This document shows positions 47,868-59,474 of a DNA stretch of 64,000 nt, piece by piece (the stretch's first letter is position 1; the number at the start of each line of letters is the position of its first letter). The position numbers and the translations under genes are program-made. The notes below the pieces were generated by a model, which made no database searches, was not told where the DNA came from, and worked only from the letters and a program-made list of their open reading frames with translations. This stretch comes from Spirochaetaceae bacterium. Lineage in GTDB: Bacteria; Spirochaetota; Spirochaetia; DSM-2461. The stretch covers positions 160,001 through 224,000 of the forward strand of contig JAOPTT010000010.1 in assembly GCA_051531975.1 (NCBI GenBank), read 5' to 3'.

Positions 47868-48038
47868 GTAACGCACAATGTCCCCTCCAAAGTGATATAA
47901 GTGTTGCCTAAGTCATTGTCTTATTTGCCTAATGATAATGATTAAACTACTAGTGAGTCTTCCCTCCCAAAAGACGACTTATGAAATAGTTGGATTATAT
48001 AAACCCCAGCTTTGCCTGAGCTGGGGTTTACTCTTTTA
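47868..48038 (+). ncRNA. Putative four-hairpin small RNA with alternating CCCUCC / UUGCCU loops
   Basis: Four consecutive stem-loops; G-U pairs are consistent only with the + strand; starts 7 nt after the sigma-28 -10 and ends in a 12-bp GC-rich terminator hairpin. Confidence 0.65.
48000..48038 (+). terminator. Intrinsic terminator (3' hairpin of the putative sRNA)
   Basis: TAAACCCCAGCT-ttgcctg-AGCTGGGGTTTA perfect 12-bp stem followed by CTCTTTT. Confidence 0.8.
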
Positions 48039-48142: not shown

Positions 48143-51100
48143 ATGTCTACAAAACAAAAAATCTGGGTGTTTTTATACCTACTACTATCTATTCCTTTAT
48201 TTGCAAAATCAGAAACTGAAACAATCTATAATGCAGATCTACAGATTTTAGATGGGACTACAACTACCCAGGAAATTAAGCTGTTAAGAGGTTTTAGTAA
48301 TGGTGTTATTGAAATTAAACTAAAACCTAAAGGTATACTCAAAGACTTTTATATTTTTAATAAGGAAGAATCTGATACAGAGTATCTTGTTAATTCTGAT
48401 CTAGATTTTGAAAGTAATGAAGATGAGATAAACTTAGAAATTATTAGTGTTAAAAGTATTACATATTCTGGTGATTTAACAATTTTAAAATATAAACCTA
48501 AAACAGTAACACTAAATTATTCAGATCAAGTAATAACTAAAGCAATATGGTTAATAGATAAAGATAACGTAGATAAATCTTTCCAGATAGAGTTAAAAAT
48601 AAATCCATCTATAGATATAAATTTAGAAGAGACTGTAACCCCGGAACAAATGGAAACCTACCTAATAAGAAACCCAGCTGCTAAAAGGTTTCTAAAAAAA
48701 CAATTAATGGGCAGTACGACTTTTAGTCCAACATCTACTAACCCATTTCCAATTGCAAATATAACAAATGAGAAATTCTATAAAGTCTCTTCAGAGTTAT
48801 TTAATAGTAAGATGATAATTAAAAGAGAGCTAGAGAGAACAGATATAAATTATTTTGACTCTATTTATAACAATACTATTAGTAGTAATTCTGAGTTTGC
48901 TGATTCTATAATTCAAAGATTGTTACGTATTTATTTCAATAAAAACAAACCACTATTCCACAGCTATATAAATAACTTTATGGAGTATAAGTTTGATTAC
49001 AATCAGTATGAAAAACTTACTGCAATACAGGGAAAAGAGTTAGCAGATAGTGCTTTAAAGTACTTAACCTGGGGAGTAGAATATACTAACGATGTAAATT
49101 ATAGAGAGTTATCCTCAGGGTCTAAGTTCCCATCTGAAATTATTAAAAATTCACCAACACTACAACAGTGGTTATCTGGGGTACAAGTTGAACTAGAAAC
49201 AAATCAAACAGGTGAAATAGTGAACTCTTTAGACCCTACTTATACTAGTGAACAAATAGAATATTTTAAAACAATTATCAGAGAGAGAAACTTAAATATA
49301 ACAACTCCTTTTAACTCTATAACTGGTTCATCCCTACCCTATGCTAAAGATGGTATAGATAACCCTAGAACCTTTAACTACAAGTTATTAAGACAAAAAG
49401 AGGTAATAAAAAGAGTTTTTAATAGGTTTAAATACAGAACATATGGTAAAAATGGCAAAGTAAATCCTACTCTGTTTAGCTTTAAATCAAGTGGTGTATC
49501 TACTCCTAAGATCTCTGATTATTACTTTTTTTTAAACGATGGAACAACTAATCTTAACAGTGATAGTCCATTCTTCCCTGGGTTAACCGATGATAATAGT
49601 TATAAAGGTTTAAATATAACTGGTGTTGATAGTTTAGGTCTTTTATCTGGAGCACTTAGTAAAACTACATATAAAGATGATATTTTAGGTTTAGACAATG
49701 AATCTAAGTTAGAAGAATTAGATAGTTATTATAGAACAACTATTCCTACTTTTAAAATAAATCCAGAAACTAATATAGATTACATGAGACTTTCAAGGTT
49801 TGATTTAGAACGAACAACTGTAATTGTACCAGATTTAAATAAAATACAGGTTGGAGACTTACTAGTTAAAGGTTTAGATAGTACAGAGATTGCAATAGTT
49901 ATCGATGTAGGGGTTCAAAGCAGTACTAACAGTTTTGATATCGGTAAAGTATTAGTTTTATCGGTAACTAAGGATAATGGTAGAGTTTCTCTAAATTATT
50001 GGGGTAATAGTGGTAATAACTACAGTTTTACAACGGAACCTAAAAACTTTATCCTACGTAGGTTAATAAAGTTTAACAGGACTGAAGAGAACCCAGAGAT
50101 TAATACTTTTACCAGAGATGATTCAGAAGCTGATACATGGGATCCTTTTGTTTTCCAACCAGAACCATTAGTAACCCAGTTTGATATAAATTCATTACAA
50201 AATAACAGCCGTTGGATTCCAAATACTGGAGAACTATTTCAACTGAATTCAATAAAAATTGGATATAATGATGACGCTGGAATATTTACTGAGATCGATG
50301 AATCAAATATTTCTGTAATAATAGAACCTCCATCTGACCTGAACTTTACTGTAGAATCTAAAACTACAAATATATTAAATAACAGAGGTGATGGTTTTGC
50401 TTTTTATGCAGTTAAACACAGAAAATTATTTGGAAGAAAATACTACGATGCTGTTAGACTTGCAACTTTTACAATAAACCCAATGGCTACAAACCAAAGT
50501 GATAACTACTTAATATCCTATGATGATGACATATTTACAGAGGAAGGTTTATGCAGAGTTCCTTACAAATTAGTATATGTTAAAAATGTAGGTTTAACTT
50601 TTAAAACAGGTCGGACCGAAGACTATACCCAGTTTGCAATTAGGCCACTAGAGCAGAATATAAGAACCGGGGATGATATCCTATTAAACTTTACACTACA
50701 AATAGAAAATAACTATGTCCCTGTTAAAACTGAGGATAAAAACTTTTTAGGTGTTTATGATGAAAAACTTCTATGGAGAGCTAACTTATACATTGATGAT
50801 CCAGGTAGAGATTGGAATAATATTAACCCTTGGAACTCACCACAAACAAGTAATGATGCAGAAATATATGGCCCAATACTAGATAATAATGTTACAAAAA
50901 GGTTCTTTAAAAACAACAGATCTTCAACTATTGATAGAGTATGGTATGGTCCAAATCTATGGAATACTCCCCCAGAGAACTACAATAAAATAAAAGGTGG
51001 GCAGATAATAAAAATTGTTAAATATTCCAATATATTTGGTGGGGATACCCCTTATTCTGTGGCATATAGCTACCCTGATACAGCTAGTACAAAAAATGGA

Positions 51101-51901
51101 CGAGACACTCCTTTTGACTTTAACAATAAATTAAATGAGCAAAAGAAACTTTTAGAAGATGCTTACAATTCTGGAGGTATAAAATTGTCTACCACACCAA
51201 ACAATACTTCCCCATGGACTAAGATAACCCCACCAAAAGAAAAGTGGTCGAACTATCTGACAAACGATGCTACCATAGGTGACAATAGTTACACACCATA
51301 TCTGCCTGGGCTTGGTTTAATAGAGTGGTATAGTAAAAATACAAACATACAGGCAAGCACACAGTTTATAAATAGTATTTATGTAGGAAATGGGCTTGGT
51401 ATTGGTAAATATAAAGAGGTTAAGTGGCCAAAGAGGTTTGCAGGTACGGACTGCATTGGCTTTGCACAGAATGCAGCAAACATAGACCAGTATAAGTGGA
51501 ATATCCCACCAACCGGCAACAGCAGTTACACTTCAACACCAATATTCAGAACCTACCCCAGAACAAAGGAAGATGCAGAGCTAGGCTCATGGACAGCATT
51601 CTCTGATTTCATTGTGGGGAAGTCTAATACTGAGGTTGATGATGATGACGATTATATAATTAAAGGTAATATAAATAGCGTTAAACCAGGAGATATTTTT
51701 TATCATATAGGAATTCCAAATTCTCCACAAAGTGGAAGTGGAAAACATGTGGGTATTGTACTTAGTATAGAAAATAACAATCTAAAAATAATTGAAAGTA
51801 CATATAACGAAGGCGATAGTAACTTATCATATGTGATTGATACTAGAAATTTAGCATACTACAATCACAAACATTGGCGTTTAGTAAGATTAAAAAAGTA
51901 A
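48143..51901 (+). CDS. Large secreted protein with two NlpC/P60-like (papain-fold) domains; C-terminal one putatively catalytic
   Basis: Sec signal peptide; C-terminal GTDCIGFAQ...VKPGDIFY...HVGIV...IIEST; internal degenerate copy GVDSLGLLS...IQVGDLLV...EIAIV. Confidence 0.7.
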   Translation: MSTKQKIWVFLYLLLSIPLFAKSETETIYNADLQILDGTTTTQEIKLLRGFSNGVIEIKLKPKGILKDFYIFNKEESDTEYLVNSDLDFESNEDEINLEIISVKSITYSGDLTILKYKPKTVTLNYSDQVITKAIWLIDKDNVDKSFQIELKINPSIDINLEETVTPEQMETYLIRNPAAKRFLKKQLMGSTTFSPTSTNPFPIANITNEKFYKVSSELFNSKMIIKRELERTDINYFDSIYNNTISSNSEFADSIIQRLLRIYFNKNKPLFHSYINNFMEYKFDYNQYEKLTAIQGKELADSALKYLTWGVEYTNDVNYRELSSGSKFPSEIIKNSPTLQQWLSGVQVELETNQTGEIVNSLDPTYTSEQIEYFKTIIRERNLNITTPFNSITGSSLPYAKDGIDNPRTFNYKLLRQKEVIKRVFNRFKYRTYGKNGKVNPTLFSFKSSGVSTPKISDYYFFLNDGTTNLNSDSPFFPGLTDDNSYKGLNITGVDSLGLLSGALSKTTYKDDILGLDNESKLEELDSYYRTTIPTFKINPETNIDYMRLSRFDLERTTVIVPDLNKIQVGDLLVKGLDSTEIAIVIDVGVQSSTNSFDIGKVLVLSVTKDNGRVSLNYWGNSGNNYSFTTEPKNFILRRLIKFNRTEENPEINTFTRDDSEADTWDPFVFQPEPLVTQFDINSLQNNSRWIPNTGELFQLNSIKIGYNDDAGIFTEIDESNISVIIEPPSDLNFTVESKTTNILNNRGDGFAFYAVKHRKLFGRKYYDAVRLATFTINPMATNQSDNYLISYDDDIFTEEGLCRVPYKLVYVKNVGLTFKTGRTEDYTQFAIRPLEQNIRTGDDILLNFTLQIENNYVPVKTEDKNFLGVYDEKLLWRANLYIDDPGRDWNNINPWNSPQTSNDAEIYGPILDNNVTKRFFKNNRSSTIDRVWYGPNLWNTPPENYNKIKGGQIIKIVKYSNIFGGDTPYSVAYSYPDTASTKNGRDTPFDFNNKLNEQKKLLEDAYNSGGIKLSTTPNNTSPWTKITPPKEKWSNYLTNDATIGDNSYTPYLPGLGLIEWYSKNTNIQASTQFINSIYVGNGLGIGKYKEVKWPKRFAGTDCIGFAQNAANIDQYKWNIPPTGNSSYTSTPIFRTYPRTKEDAELGSWTAFSDFIVGKSNTEVDDDDDYIIKGNINSVKPGDIFYHIGIPNSPQSGSGKHVGIVLSIENNNLKIIESTYNEGDSNLSYVIDTRNLAYYNHKHWRLVRLKK

Positions 51902-51913
51902 AAGAAGGGAATT

Positions 51914-52900
51914 ATGAGAAAAGTATTATTACAATTAGTAATTTTTAGCTTAACGAGTATTTTTTCAGAAGAAGTTCTAGTAACTAAAATGAAAATGGAA
52001 ACATTATTAGAAATTCCTATTGGTAGAAAAAACTTTAATTTAGGTGAAGTATATGAGCCTGAAGGAATGTCTACTACTCTTCTTATGGATATGATAGTTT
52101 TAGAGGATTCCTATATTATTCAAGATATTGGTAACCAGAGAGTAGTAATGTTAAATAAAGATCTCACGAGTTTTACTACATTCAAAACATTTACCGATAC
52201 TCAAAATAGGAATGCAGCACCTTCAAGTTTTATTTCAATCGATAATAATAATATTCTAGCATCGGACTATAATGGGAAATACAGTGATGTGTTCAATTAT
52301 GAAACTGACTCGATAGTTCTACAACTAAAAGATACCATTCCATATAATAAATTTTTTGATGATAATAGAATTCCAGGATATGGATTAATCCTTATAGATA
52401 ACCTACTTATTGGTGAAATCAAAGAAAAATCTTTTTTTGTAATTGATCTATTATCAAAAAAAGAAACTAGAATATTGATTGGAGGAGAAGCTATTAATCT
52501 ATTAAAATCAAAATATGAAATTATCAATATTAAAGAAGACTTATATTTAGTACAAAATAATAATAAGATTTTAACTAGGAGCCCATTAAAATTCTACAAC
52601 TTTATGTTCAATAAAAAAAATAATATTCCTAGTAATATGGAAAAATTAAAAAAGTCTAGATTTAAAGATGAGGCATATTTCTCAGGAATGGATATCGATG
52701 GTAATTATTATTGGTCTCGAGGTTCTGGTTGTTATATTTTTAATTCAAAAGGAAGTCTTATAAAACATGTTTCATCTCCAAGAGCTTCGAATGGACATAG
52801 TGACATGCTCAGATATGCTGTAGATAAGCAAGGCAACCTATATAAGTTGTTTTTATCAGACAATAAATACCTATTAAAGTGGATAAAAAGAACATGGTAA
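51914..52900 (+). CDS. Exported protein with beta-propeller/NHL-like motifs (candidate immunity protein)
   Basis: Signal peptide; IIQDIGNQRVV, GMDIDGNYYW, AVDKQGNLY; starts 12 nt after the previous stop. Confidence 0.6.
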   Translation: MRKVLLQLVIFSLTSIFSEEVLVTKMKMETLLEIPIGRKNFNLGEVYEPEGMSTTLLMDMIVLEDSYIIQDIGNQRVVMLNKDLTSFTTFKTFTDTQNRNAAPSSFISIDNNNILASDYNGKYSDVFNYETDSIVLQLKDTIPYNKFFDDNRIPGYGLILIDNLLIGEIKEKSFFVIDLLSKKETRILIGGEAINLLKSKYEIINIKEDLYLVQNNNKILTRSPLKFYNFMFNKKNNIPSNMEKLKKSRFKDEAYFSGMDIDGNYYWSRGSGCYIFNSKGSLIKHVSSPRASNGHSDMLRYAVDKQGNLYKLFLSDNKYLLKWIKRTW

Positions 52901-52979: not shown

Positions 52980-53657
52980 ATGATTTCAAAACTTATTAAA
53001 ATTATTGCATTCACATTAGTTATGGCAGCTGTAACAGGATGTGCGACAACAAAATATGAGGAACCTACAATTCTAGATTTATATGGTTCTTATGATGCTG
53101 GTGAGTATGTAAATAACTATTATGGATTCAAATTCTCATTACCAGAAACTTATGTAATTCAAGGTGATGAAATGAAGGAATACTTCAAAGAAGTTGGAGC
53201 GAAGCTATTAAATGGTAATGATGCTGAAAATACAAATCTTGACGAGTTAAGAGATGAACAATTATATAATATTTTAATTGCTTCTAAGCATGAGATTGGT
53301 GCACCAGTTGATGAAAATATAATGATTCAGGTTATTGCTGAGAACTTAGAATATCAGCCTGGAGTAGAAAATGGTGCTGATTATTTATGGCATGTTCAAA
53401 ACCAGTTAGAATCAAGTGATATGACAGTAATTAATCAATCTGAGTTTGGTACAGAAATTGTTAATGGGATTGAGTTTACAACATACAGTTATGGATTAGA
53501 TTTACAATCAGTTGTTGTAAGTCAGAAATGGTTTACAAAGAAAGTTGGAGATCATATTTTCTGTATTGCTCTATCTAATATAACAGATGAAGGATTTAAA
53601 GAGTTAGAAGAAATTCTTTATACAATTGAACTATTACAAAATAGCAGAATGAAATAA
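52980..53657 (+). CDS. Hypothetical lipoprotein (PsbP/DcrB-like fold possible)
   Basis: Lipobox VTGC; YVNNYYGFKFSLPETY motif; SD AGGAG. Confidence 0.7.
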   Translation: MISKLIKIIAFTLVMAAVTGCATTKYEEPTILDLYGSYDAGEYVNNYYGFKFSLPETYVIQGDEMKEYFKEVGAKLLNGNDAENTNLDELRDEQLYNILIASKHEIGAPVDENIMIQVIAENLEYQPGVENGADYLWHVQNQLESSDMTVINQSEFGTEIVNGIEFTTYSYGLDLQSVVVSQKWFTKKVGDHIFCIALSNITDEGFKELEEILYTIELLQNSRMK

Positions 53658-53663
53658 TAAAGT

Positions 53664-53691
53664 TAGGCTGGGTTTACCTAGCCTATCTTTT
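53664..53691. terminator. Intrinsic terminator between convergent genes
   Basis: TAGGCTGGG-ttta-CCTAGCCTA followed by TCTTTT. Confidence 0.7.
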
Positions 53692-53697
53692 ACTAAT

Positions 53698-54717
53698 TTA
53701 TATTTCTTTTGTCGTACCACGAACAATTAAATCTGGATAAAACATTAGACGTCTTGGAGTTCTATTTTTATGTTTAAGTAGTTGTAACATCATTTCGGCT
53801 GCTTCTATTCCAAGTCTTGGTGGATTCATATCAACTGTTGTAATCTGTGGATGGGATAACCGGGATAAAACAGTGTTATCTTGAGCAACTAAAGATAGAT
53901 CTTCAGGTACGGATAATCCAAGTTCTTGCGCTGCTCTCATTACACCTAAAGCCAATAACTCATTGGATACAAATATTGCAGATGGTCTATCTTTAGACTT
54001 GAGTATTTCTTTTATAATATCGCATGAAATATCTATTGCTTCAAAATGATCAATATCATCAATATGAATAATCATATCTTTAGTAACCGGAATGTTCTGT
54101 TCCTTCATTTTTTTTAAATAGATTTTTTCTTTACATAAAAAAGAGTAACTATTTGCAGTACCTCTAATAAAAGATATCTTTTTATGATTAAGACTAAAAA
54201 GATGGTCCATAACATGTGCCATCCCTTTCTCCTGATCTACAATAATTAGGTTACTATCGATTCTTTCAGGATTACCATTAATTAAAACTACAGGTAATTG
54301 TTTATTTAAGTCAGCATATAATCCTGAATTTTCATCTTTAGTCCCAACATCAACAATAATTATACCATCAACTCCTGAATCGATAAACTTTCGTAATATA
54401 TCTATCTCTTCTTCTCCTCTATGTGGGGAACTTGCAAAATTACACAGGTAACCATCTTCTCTTAGTCGGATCTCCATTGTGTTCATAATAGAAGAATAAT
54501 ATGGGTTTTCCATATTTGAAACAATAACTCCAACTCGGGATGCTTGACCTTTAGTTAGACCCCGGGCAGTTAAATTAGGTCTATAATCAAGTTCTGCAAT
54601 AGTTTTTTCTACTATTGCCCTAGCTTTATCACTTACAGGATGATTATTTAGAACTCGAGATACTGTGGCAATTGAAACACCTGCTTTTTGTGCTACATCT
54701 TCTAATTTTACTTTCAA
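53698..54717 (-). CDS. LacI family transcriptional regulator (copy A)
   Basis: LEDVAQKAGVSIATVSRVLN HTH, YRPN hinge, sugar-binding domain; TTG start at 54717 by analogy with copy B. Confidence 0.95.
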   Translation of the reverse strand: MKVKLEDVAQKAGVSIATVSRVLNNHPVSDKARAIVEKTIAELDYRPNLTARGLTKGQASRVGVIVSNMENPYYSSIMNTMEIRLREDGYLCNFASSPHRGEEEIDILRKFIDSGVDGIIIVDVGTKDENSGLYADLNKQLPVVLINGNPERIDSNLIIVDQEKGMAHVMDHLFSLNHKKISFIRGTANSYSFLCKEKIYLKKMKEQNIPVTKDMIIHIDDIDHFEAIDISCDIIKEILKSKDRPSAIFVSNELLALGVMRAAQELGLSVPEDLSLVAQDNTVLSRLSHPQITTVDMNPPRLGIEAAEMMLQLLKHKNRTPRRLMFYPDLIVRGTTKEI

Positions 54718-54750
54718 CTGTCTATCTCCTTCCAAATAATACTGTTTATA

Positions 54751-58445: not shown

Positions 58446-59474
58446 CTAACTCATACCAATATCCTTGGTTGAATTTCTAATAATCAGCTCAGGATTAAAT
58501 GTCAAAATTCGAGCATACCTTTTTTTATGTTTCAGGATCTGTAACATCATCTCTGCAGATTCTGTACCCAATCTTGAGGGATTCATATCAATAGTTGTCA
58601 ATTGAGGGTCGGAAATCTTAGATAAGAAAGTATTATCCTGGGCAACTAATGACAAATCTTCTGGTATAGAGATCCCCAGTTCTTTAGCAGCCTTCATTAC
58701 TCCTAAAGCCATTAGTTCATTGGAAGCAAATATGGCTGTTGGCCTACTTTTTAACTGCAATATTTTTTTTACAGAACTACATGTTAAATCGATACCGTCA
58801 AAATGATCAGAATCTTCAGTTCGAATTATCATATCTTTTTCTACTGCTATGTTCTGCTCCTTCATTTTTTTTATATAAATATTTTCTTTACATAAAAAAG
58901 AGTAACTATTTGCAGTACCTCTAATAAAGGATATTTTTTTATGATTAAGGTTAAAAAGATGATCCATTGCGTGTTCCATCCCTTTCTCCTGATCTACAAT
59001 AATTAGGTTACTATCTATTCTCTCAGGGTTACCATTTATTAGTACTACTGGTAATTGTTTATTTAAGTCAGCATATAATCCTGAGTTTTCATCTTTAGTT
59101 CCAACATCAACAATAATCAGACCATCAACTCCTGAATCGATAAACTTTTTTAAAATGTCTATCTCTTCCTCTCCTCTACATGGTGAACTTGCAAAATTAC
59201 ATAGATAACCATCTTCTCTTAGCCTGATCTCCATTGAATTCATAATAGAAGAAAAATATGGATTTTCCATATTAGAAACGACAACTCCAACCCGGGATGT
59301 TTGACCTTTAGTAAGACCTCGGGCCATTAAATTAGGCCTATAATCAAGTTCTGCAATAGTTTTTTCTACTACAGCCCTAGCTTTATCACTTACAGGATGA
59401 TTATTTAGAACTCGAGATACTGTGGCAATTGAAACACCAGCTTTTTGTGCAACATCTTCTAATTTTACTTTCAA
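58446..59474 (-). CDS. LacI family transcriptional regulator (copy B)
   Basis: Close paralog of copy A; same HTH and hinge. Confidence 0.95.
   Translation of the reverse strand: MKVKLEDVAQKAGVSIATVSRVLNNHPVSDKARAVVEKTIAELDYRPNLMARGLTKGQTSRVGVVVSNMENPYFSSIMNSMEIRLREDGYLCNFASSPCRGEEEIDILKKFIDSGVDGLIIVDVGTKDENSGLYADLNKQLPVVLINGNPERIDSNLIIVDQEKGMEHAMDHLFNLNHKKISFIRGTANSYSFLCKENIYIKKMKEQNIAVEKDMIIRTEDSDHFDGIDLTCSSVKKILQLKSRPTAIFASNELMALGVMKAAKELGISIPEDLSLVAQDNTFLSKISDPQLTTIDMNPSRLGTESAEMMLQILKHKKRYARILTFNPELIIRNSTKDIGMS

Follow-up and report, generated by a model that had tools for sequence, protein, structure and literature searches.

A 64,000-nucleotide stretch of the genome of a Spirochaetaceae bacterium (NCBI GenBank assembly GCA_051531975.1, contig JAOPTT010000010.1, positions 160,001 to 224,000 of the forward strand; hereafter the window, of which position 1 is the first letter) contains two adjacent genes, for proteins of 1252 and 328 residues, that are likely an antibacterial peptidoglycan hydrolase toxin and the immunity protein against it, belonging to a spirochaete-specific polymorphic toxin system with swappable tips. 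The toxin has two domains of the NlpC/P60 fold, the first of which has lost its catalytic cysteine and the second of which is the tip. Across its homologues the order of toxin and partner gene is maintained, the two occur in arrays of cassettes, and tip and partner are exchanged together. These genes apparently represent an undescribed spirochaete class of polymorphic toxin-immunity modules. An initial annotation, made from the sequence alone, had proposed a secreted enzyme with one dead and one live NlpC/P60-like copy, followed by the gene for its cognate immunity protein.

A probably dead and an intact NlpC/P60-fold domain in one protein

The ordered internal duplication on which that proposal was built is borne out, as all 13 quoted motifs occur once each and in the order claimed, those of the first copy at residues 399, 475, 493, 568, 582, and 636 and those of the second at 974/984, 1051, 1100, 1180, 1202, and 1245. 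Local alignment of residues 281-660 with residues 851-1252 scores 120, where 1000 shuffles gave 44 ± 6.7 with a maximum of 77 (z = 11.3); a two-sequence BLASTP search between the copies gives E = 5e-10, and a profile of each copy matches the other copy in many homologues. In a structure model of residues 287-1252, obtained with 56 aligned homologues (mean predicted local distance difference test score (pLDDT) of 85.1), both copies adopt the papain-like NlpC/P60 fold that had been anticipated. A wide structural search places the first domain (residues 293-644) closest to NlpC1 (6bim) and the second (residues 871-1251) closest to the Clostridioides difficile autolysin Acd24020 (7cfl), in each case with Z 9.6 and a root mean square deviation (rmsd) of 2.6 Å over 122 residues, and its top 20 rows are all NlpC/P60-type hydrolase domains of the classical, non-permuted form. 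Foldseek with the entire 966-residue model returned nothing at E ≤ 0.001, the PF00877 profile has no match to the window toxin, and the match of the family profile to a solved NLP/P60 chain is no better than E 0.14. On the modeled structures, the two domains are divergent, insertion-rich members of NlpC/P60 rather than members of PF00877, each of about 350-380 residues with insertion accounting for most of the length. An Atlas search with a full-length homologue returned NlpC/P60 clusters at 0.76, which serves as a lead only, and one with the N-terminal domain of a homologue gave no usable match.

The catalytic residues set the two copies apart. The classical order of Cys, His, and then a polar residue is found in the second domain and not in the first, and Ser497, Glu582, Cys1104, His1202, and Glu1218 all lie where the initial annotation had put them; the toxin has just two cysteines, at positions 804 and 1104. 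In the second domain of homologues, Cys is found in 103/104, His in 78/104, and Glu in 86/104, whereas Cys occupies the nucleophile position of the first domain in only 1 of 94 (Ser in 59, Ala in 13, Gly in 6, and Asp in 6), a loss of the first Cys throughout the family. His is present in 48 of 106 first domains, and a Gly-x-Asp motif is kept in 92 of 94. From its fold, and from its replacement by M23-like domains in relatives, the intact tip is predicted to hydrolyze the peptide stems of peptidoglycan. One homologue alone, P0036, has a first domain with Cys in the place of the nucleophile, possibly a relic of a doubly active ancestor.

Two aspects of the anatomy differ from the first description, which had the tandem copies right. 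The second domain begins at about residue 871, with a DxKxLWRANL helix, and not at about 960, and between the copies (residues ~672-870) lies an Ig-like (immunoglobulin-like) β-sandwich that had gone unmentioned, with middling structural matches (Z 4-5) to the Ig folds of adhesins and pilins. Residues 871-900, which include this helix, have a mean identity of 65% across homologues, compared with 28% for residues 901-1252 and 28-31% outside the segment generally. Such conservation fits a recombination junction, and the DxKxLWRANL motif, within the first 30 residues of the second domain, is a conserved point at which cassettes often begin. At the other end of the protein, the profile of the N-terminal region matches 8 of 156 proteins. 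By a crude rule, the N-termini of toxin and partner both resemble signal peptides, with no lipobox; 563 of the 1857 open reading frames (ORFs) of the same genome (30%) pass this rule too, as do 57 of 72 long toxin homologues.

A β-propeller partner predicted to cover the active site

The partner gene begins 12 nucleotides beyond the end of the toxin gene, as the initial annotation had noted, and the propeller it had suspected behind the signal peptide is seen in the structure model (β-propeller, pLDDT 79). The best structural match is the NHL propeller 1q7f (Z 14.8, rmsd 4.5 Å, 245 residues); Tsi1, a propeller-like inhibitor considered below, is not among the 50 partner matches listed, which does not amount to its exclusion. 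Neither toxin nor partner has a match above cut-off in Pfam, NCBIfam, PADLOC, or PHROGs. A search of a 5.8-billion-sequence set with the partner sequence returned only itself, and the partner family was assembled from the gene neighbors of toxin homologues.

The predicted complex of the tip (residues 866-1252) with the mature partner scores 0.67 (0.70, 0.51, and 0.67 in the separate runs), and the best of three controls scores 0.00. The score mark applied is reached by 116 of 157 solved complexes and by 2 of 215 mismatched pairs, a calibration that is rough because the analysis used its own alignments. The runs agree in at least 48% of contacts, with partner pLDDT of at least 70. On the toxin side, the predicted interface comprises Tyr975, Asp1103-Cys1104-Ile1105, Gly1200-His1202, and Glu1218-Gly1224, which includes all three catalytic residues, and an acidic loop (residues 1166-1170) meets partner residues 269-272 and 285-291. 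The propeller is thus predicted to sit over the catalytic cleft, in line with the interaction proposed from the sequence. The prediction supports plugging of the active site and is not by itself proof of binding or of cognate specificity; the solved Tse1-Tsi1 pair offers a loose precedent in structure.

Tips and partners are exchanged together

The order of genes seen in the window is general. Where there is room downstream, 95 of 99 tip-bearing ORFs are followed within 200 nucleotides by a same-strand ORF of at least 150 residues. After 21 tip ORFs with less than 1100 nucleotides downstream were left out, the remainder collapsed to 63 non-redundant modules, in 62 of which the gap between tip and partner is at most 40 nucleotides, and one iterated profile, started from the window partner, takes in 46 of the 63 partners. 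An SH3_3 domain is present at the C-terminus of many partners. The crude signal-peptide rule is passed by 40 of 50 partners, several of the misses coming from late start picks; a count of 63/63 obtained otherwise is biased because starts were picked to favor hydrophobic N-termini.

In 14 of 101 loci of the redundant set, two to five tip ORFs occur. Arrays in genome G001 (loci L022-L024) consist of a full-length gene and its partner gene followed by truncated cassettes, each with its own partner, and one of these cassettes begins exactly at the LWRANL motif; other arrays are at L070, L073, L077, L085, L102, L122, and L138. A constant body with exchangeable tips, the toxin-immunity order of genes, and arrays of cassettes, the genomic marks of polymorphic toxin systems, are all present. 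The conserved N-termini, variable C-termini, and co-varying downstream genes that had been proposed as a check among homologues were also found, and each computational check that the initial annotation had named as able to refute it turned out in its favor.

The nearest neighbor of a tip and that of its partner agree in 29 of 63 modules, and within the top three in 43 of 63, where permutation gives a mean of 1.1 and a maximum of 7 of 63. The nearest neighbors of N-terminal part and tip agree in only 4 of 31. The partner is predicted correctly by the tip in 9 and by the N-terminal body in 2 of 19 cases. For the distance comparisons, 42 of 50 pairs were used, after two mispairings and the partners shorter than 280 residues, among them the split partner in L022, had been dropped. 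The window protein is itself a mosaic: relative to a toxin in L024, its dead domain is 48% identical and its tip 24-25%, whereas its tip is 41-54% identical to that of a cassette in L022, and the window partner, compared with 2134 ORFs, finds its two best matches in the two fragments of the split gene that follows that same L022 cassette.

Exchange also reaches beyond the NlpC/P60 fold. Among 84 homologues with a strong match to the dead domain, 48 have NlpC/P60 tips, 15 have M23-like tips, three have tips unrelated to either, and the others are truncated or not clearly assignable. The M23-like tips (P0083, P0138, P0101, P0069, and 11 more, with loci such as L028:6940-12738 and L029:13677-15203) have HxxxD in 15/15 and HxH in 14/15, the exception being short. 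In genome G033, cassettes of the M23 class start within the dead domain, are followed by SH3_3-bearing genes, and lie near gspD/gspE. That one body carries two unrelated peptidoglycan-peptidase folds is, among the indirect evidence, the strongest pointer to the wall as target. Some homologues also have weak matches to CHAP, Amidase_6, or ELLD, below cut-off. In P0028, P0034, and P0084, the last 350-390 residues resemble neither NlpC/P60 nor M23 and are without a Pfam match; judging from their sequences, these tips, that of P0084 being hydrophobic and Ala-rich, are candidate new toxin domains.

Three genomes hold only a short tip fragment with at least one partner gene (L110/L185 in G405, L111/L187 in G029, and L045/L186 in G045), which is consistent with retained orphan immunity. 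At L024:6977-14578 in G001, two modules stand in tandem in which ~550 nucleotides at the 3′ ends of the partner genes are 98% identical and the tip with the 5′ part of the partner gene is ~81% identical; this pattern suggests a recent duplication in which the interacting parts have diversified.

Proposed mechanism and delivery

Toxin and partner would both cross the inner membrane via Sec, and in the periplasm the propeller would plug the Cys1104-His1202-Glu1218 cleft and so shield the wall of the producer. The toxin would then be exported, likely by a type II secretion system (T2SS), and in many relatives probably together with a giant Ig-repeat protein encoded directly upstream. Once unplugged, it would cut the peptide stems in the peptidoglycan of a neighbor, most likely, from knowledge of the enzyme family, at the bond between γ-D-Glu and the diamino acid, which in spirochaete kin would be L-ornithine. 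The dead domain likely serves for binding or docking and stays constant while tips change, and the tips would be exchanged by recombination near the DxKxLWRANL junction. L-Ornithine is present in Spirochaetales walls according to the portion of PMC3814087 available, and kin may therefore be the preferred target.

The link to a giant gene and to secretion comes from relatives. Of 25 groups of full-length toxins, 11 have a giant Ig-repeat gene directly upstream, and 4 of the 25 have T2SS (gsp) genes; in 5 of the 25, less than 1.3 kb of upstream sequence was present. Four further intact toxins in well-assembled genomes have the giant upstream in 4/4 cases, with gsp genes following in 2/4. The giants reach ~5,000 residues where complete (5,008 and 5,795 in the well-assembled genomes) and contain Ig-like, TIG, and OmpL47-type β-barrel domains; three of the giant reference proteins stem from family loci and match themselves by construction. 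The genome of the window has a giant of 4883 residues with a signal peptide (G000 C6:396320-410971; L105:3321-17972, - strand) and, ~37 kb from it, a gsp cluster (C6:447727-457399), both on another contig than the window. At L030:3-1031 in genome G031, the end of an RHS-repeat ORF sits immediately upstream of a family member, where other loci have the giant gene.

A more ambitious picture can be offered tentatively, and is perhaps doubtful. The family might be a contact-dependent spirochaete weapon in which a T2SS-exported Ig-repeat surface stalk of ~0.5 MDa docks a swappable NlpC/P60 or M23 warhead through the N-terminal and dead domains of the toxin and delivers it to the walls of neighbors, also through the outer membrane of diderms; the window pair would then be a detached warhead served in trans.

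Several observations weigh against the interpretation of the window pair as toxin and immunity protein of such a system. The window locus has no cassette array, and neither a giant gene nor a secretion gene adjoins it. The controls for the complex were unrelated proteins rather than non-cognate family members, and because a complex of an NlpC enzyme with a partial propeller, Tse1-Tsi1, has already been solved, the passing score may partly reflect likeness to it. Of the downstream genes, 17 of 63 fall outside the partner profile, and four M23-class partners tested all failed to match it. In a larger set, the partner was predicted by the tip in only 12 and by the N-terminal body in 7 of 31 cases, in the shared set of 19 Mantel r reached significance for none of tip, dead domain, and spacer, and physical linkage alone also makes neighboring parts travel together. 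The giant of the genome itself is followed by a DUF3160 gene and no toxin, and is 41% identical to a toxin-less giant in G001 compared with 24% to a toxin-linked one; the toxin-less G001 giant implies that two giant subtypes exist. A secretin is found in 5 of 7 toxin-positive genomes but also in 10 of 31 toxin-negative ones and is thus non-specific. Finally, a secreted wall hydrolase would need passage through the outer membrane of a diderm target.

Alternative explanations

The proteins could instead be a self-directed wall-remodeling endopeptidase and its dedicated periplasmic inhibitor, for example to open the wall of the producer for the giant or the T2SS, an explanation that is unlikely overall. 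Housekeeping autolysins are the best structural matches, among them LytE in complex with IseA (8i2e, by its PDB title), and IseA of Bacillus subtilis is an inhibitor of LytE; the signal-peptide-like N-termini of both proteins, the linkage to secretion genes, and the SH3_3 domain at the end of many partners would also suit such a role. A housekeeping purpose does not readily account, however, for arrays with one partner per tip, co-exchange, M23 swaps, and a patchy range, nor for the remnants of tip fragment and partner in G029, G405, and G045. In addition, the genome of the window has a separate canonical PF00877 protein, and 10 of 15 secretin-bearing genomes are without the toxin family.

It is rather improbable that the pair belongs to a polymorphic toxin system in which the substrate of the papain-fold tip is not peptidoglycan but, for example, a surface protein, a lipid, or an amide, with the partner still its inhibitor. 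Such a target would be compatible with a domain of ~380 residues with large insertions, of which only ~122 residues align and which PF00877 does not match, and lipid-targeting NlpC/P60 toxins exist, as described in the available part of PMC11996579. The lipid-targeting form described there is permuted, whereas here Cys precedes His, and both the alternative tip on the same body, M23-like and hence of a peptidoglycan peptidase family, and the sub-threshold CHAP, Amidase_6, and ELLD matches weigh against such a target.

There is only a slight chance that the first domain, rather than being simply dead, is a Ser-His site for autoprocessing or hydrolysis that frees the tip. In 32 of 80 first domains, Ser at the nucleophile position is combined with His at its catalytic position, so that residual Ser-His chemistry is possible in some relatives; the window copy, with Glu582 in place of His, falls outside this explanation as aligned. 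Against it also stand the Ala, Gly, Asp, Thr, or Glu at the nucleophile position in 31 of 94 homologues and the third triad position, which is mostly Ser (62 of 80). An origin as a phage or tailocin lysin remnant, to which two phage/tailocin baseplate chains among the fold matches (8v3w, 9euf) might hint, is effectively excluded by gene context, with no PHROGs match, likely signal peptides present, no phage genes noticed among the window ORFs or inspected loci, and a guanine-cytosine content of the toxin gene equal to that of the genome (31.5% in both).

Relation to known systems

A close analogy is with the polymorphic toxins exported by Sec/T2SS and carrying an N-terminal inactive transglutaminase (papain-like) domain, described in the available portion of Zhang et al. 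2012 (PMC3482391). As far as that portion goes, the two share a signal peptide, a papain-fold domain devoid of catalytic residues near Ig-like domains, a variable C-terminal toxin, the toxin-immunity order of genes, and arrays of cassettes. They differ in that the dead domain here is of NlpC/P60 type and a duplicate of the commonest tip, the toxin has no RHS repeats, the tips are predicted wall hydrolases with exported immunity proteins, and, in relatives, there is linkage to a gsp gene cluster and to a giant gene that is separate. In the table of the same paper, within the part available, Tox-NLPC/P60 is given only for Bacteroidetes and δ-proteobacteria, with no spirochaetes and no immunity family, and with export via type VI secretion (T6SS), PVC, or TcdB/TcaC.

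Tse1 (Tae1)-Tsi1 of Pseudomonas aeruginosa, in the available part of PMC3391265, pairs a single-domain T6SS-exported Tse1 with the partial propeller Tsi1. There too, an antibacterial NlpC/P60 amidase of Cys-His type comes before an exported immunity protein, likewise propeller-like, which blocks the active site, as is predicted here. Unlike Tse1, which has a single domain and no localization domains, the window toxin is multidomain, with 1252 residues and a likely signal peptide; the window partner is a larger, NHL-like propeller; and Tse1 ranks only at Z 6.0 in the structural search with the window toxin model. Identity as a T6SS effector was rejected, given the multidomain organization, the signal-peptide-like N-terminus, and the lack of a match to PF05943 (VipB/TssC) in the 98.5%-complete genome.

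A precedent for an NlpC/P60 fold that binds peptidoglycan without catalysis is RipD of Mycobacterium tuberculosis, which we take to belong to NlpC/P60; we know of no tandem fusion of RipD to an active copy and of no toxin-immunity context for it. RipD (Rv1566c) is a non-catalytic peptidoglycan-binding protein according to the available part of PMC8562490. The window family differs in phylum and in marker domain from the TANFOR toxins, for which no match was found in Pfam or NCBIfam scans of toxin or giants. Those polymorphic toxins of Bacteroidetes are reportedly lineage-restricted, large, secreted, and defined by a conserved N-terminal domain.

Range of the family and significance

A search with residues 287-1252 gave 250 representatives at 50% identity clustering, 150 of which were listed; where source names were given, they were those of Thiospirochaeta perfilievii, Treponema bryantii, and Spirochaetales, with the proteins labeled hypothetical. 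Of 41 named genome loci, 40 are titled spirochaete and one only bacterium, and the family occurs in free-living and gut-associated lineages. Its range is patchy, with members in 7 of 38 genomes of the order. In the phylum, 12 of 401 genomes matched and 7 were counted as true members after inspection of the loci, the other five matches being short and weak (~60 positions, E 1e-5 to 1e-4) and treated as generic NlpC/P60; these counts are lower bounds because at most two candidates were scored per genome. No close relative turned up when metagenome data were scanned with just the tip. The toxin gene is single-copy in its own genome.

Despite its at least 250 clusters, the family is without a Pfam or NCBIfam model, and no description of it was found in open-access full-text literature, a scope that does not extend to the supplement and final part of PMC3482391 or to subscription journals. 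The interbacterial weapons of spirochaetes are, to our knowledge, poorly known. If the proposed roles are correct, the modules would provide a toxin-immunity system open to direct testing in spirochaetes that can be cultured, enzymes possibly tuned to ornithine-type peptidoglycan, a new family of propeller inhibitors, and an instance of a duplicated catalytic domain turned into the constant body of a polymorphic toxin. The arrangement of giant gene, toxin, immunity gene, and gsp genes, which is conserved, also makes it testable whether a T2SS serves cell-to-cell delivery of wall hydrolases.

Features of the locus

Table 1. Genes, domains, and catalytic positions of the toxin-partner locus in window coordinates
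Feature	Position	Strand	Basis or remark
Predicted polymorphic toxin gene, 1252 aa	48143-51901	+	ORF; likely signal peptide, N-terminal domain, likely dead NlpC/P60, Ig-like spacer, intact NlpC/P60
Likely Sec/signal peptidase I signal peptide, residues 1-21, no lipobox Cys	48143-48205	+	Positive n-region and hydrophobic stretch
N-terminal domain, ~residues 22-292	48206-49018	+	Version common to a small homologue subgroup
First NlpC/P60-fold domain, residues 293-644, likely catalytically dead	49019-50074	+	Structure match, residue conservation
Ser497, at the Cys position of the first domain	49631-49633	+	
Glu582, at the His position of the first domain	49886-49888	+	
Ig-like β-sandwich spacer, ~residues 672-870	50156-50752	+	All-β in model; fold class tentative
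Second NlpC/P60-fold domain, residues 871-1252, variable tip	50753-51898	+	Structure match, catalytic residues
Cys1104	51452-51454	+	Second domain
His1202	51746-51748	+	Second domain
Glu1218	51794-51796	+	Second domain
Predicted cognate immunity protein gene, 328 aa	51914-52900	+	ORF; signal peptide and β-propeller
Lipoprotein gene, 225 aa	52980-53657	+	ORF

The lipoprotein gene at 52980, which the initial annotation had suggested might supply a third component, was rejected as such, since it is not conserved with the system. It has no homologue in the 104 other loci of the toxin family, and its orthologue in genome G001 (51% identical) lies ~67 kb from the nearest toxin locus; its sole Pfam trace is a sub-threshold match to PsbP_2. 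Since no terminator was called between the partner gene and the lipoprotein gene, the two may be co-transcribed. A promoter scan performed at chance level, with 23 found and 33.7 expected. Among sequencing runs, none with RNA was listed as containing the sequence, which has no bearing on whether the genes are expressed.

Terminator-like hairpins at 48000-48030 and 53664-53685 bracket the three + strand genes. Both contain a GCTGGG(G)TTTAC motif that occurs six times in the genome, and the upstream one, with a 13-bp stem, is unique in the genome. Beyond the second hairpin, two regulator genes at 53698-54735 and 58446-59474, which by eye we take to be LacI-like, are 82.6% identical to each other and flank a methyltransferase gene and a gene for a 721-residue protein within a cluster resembling one for sugar uptake.

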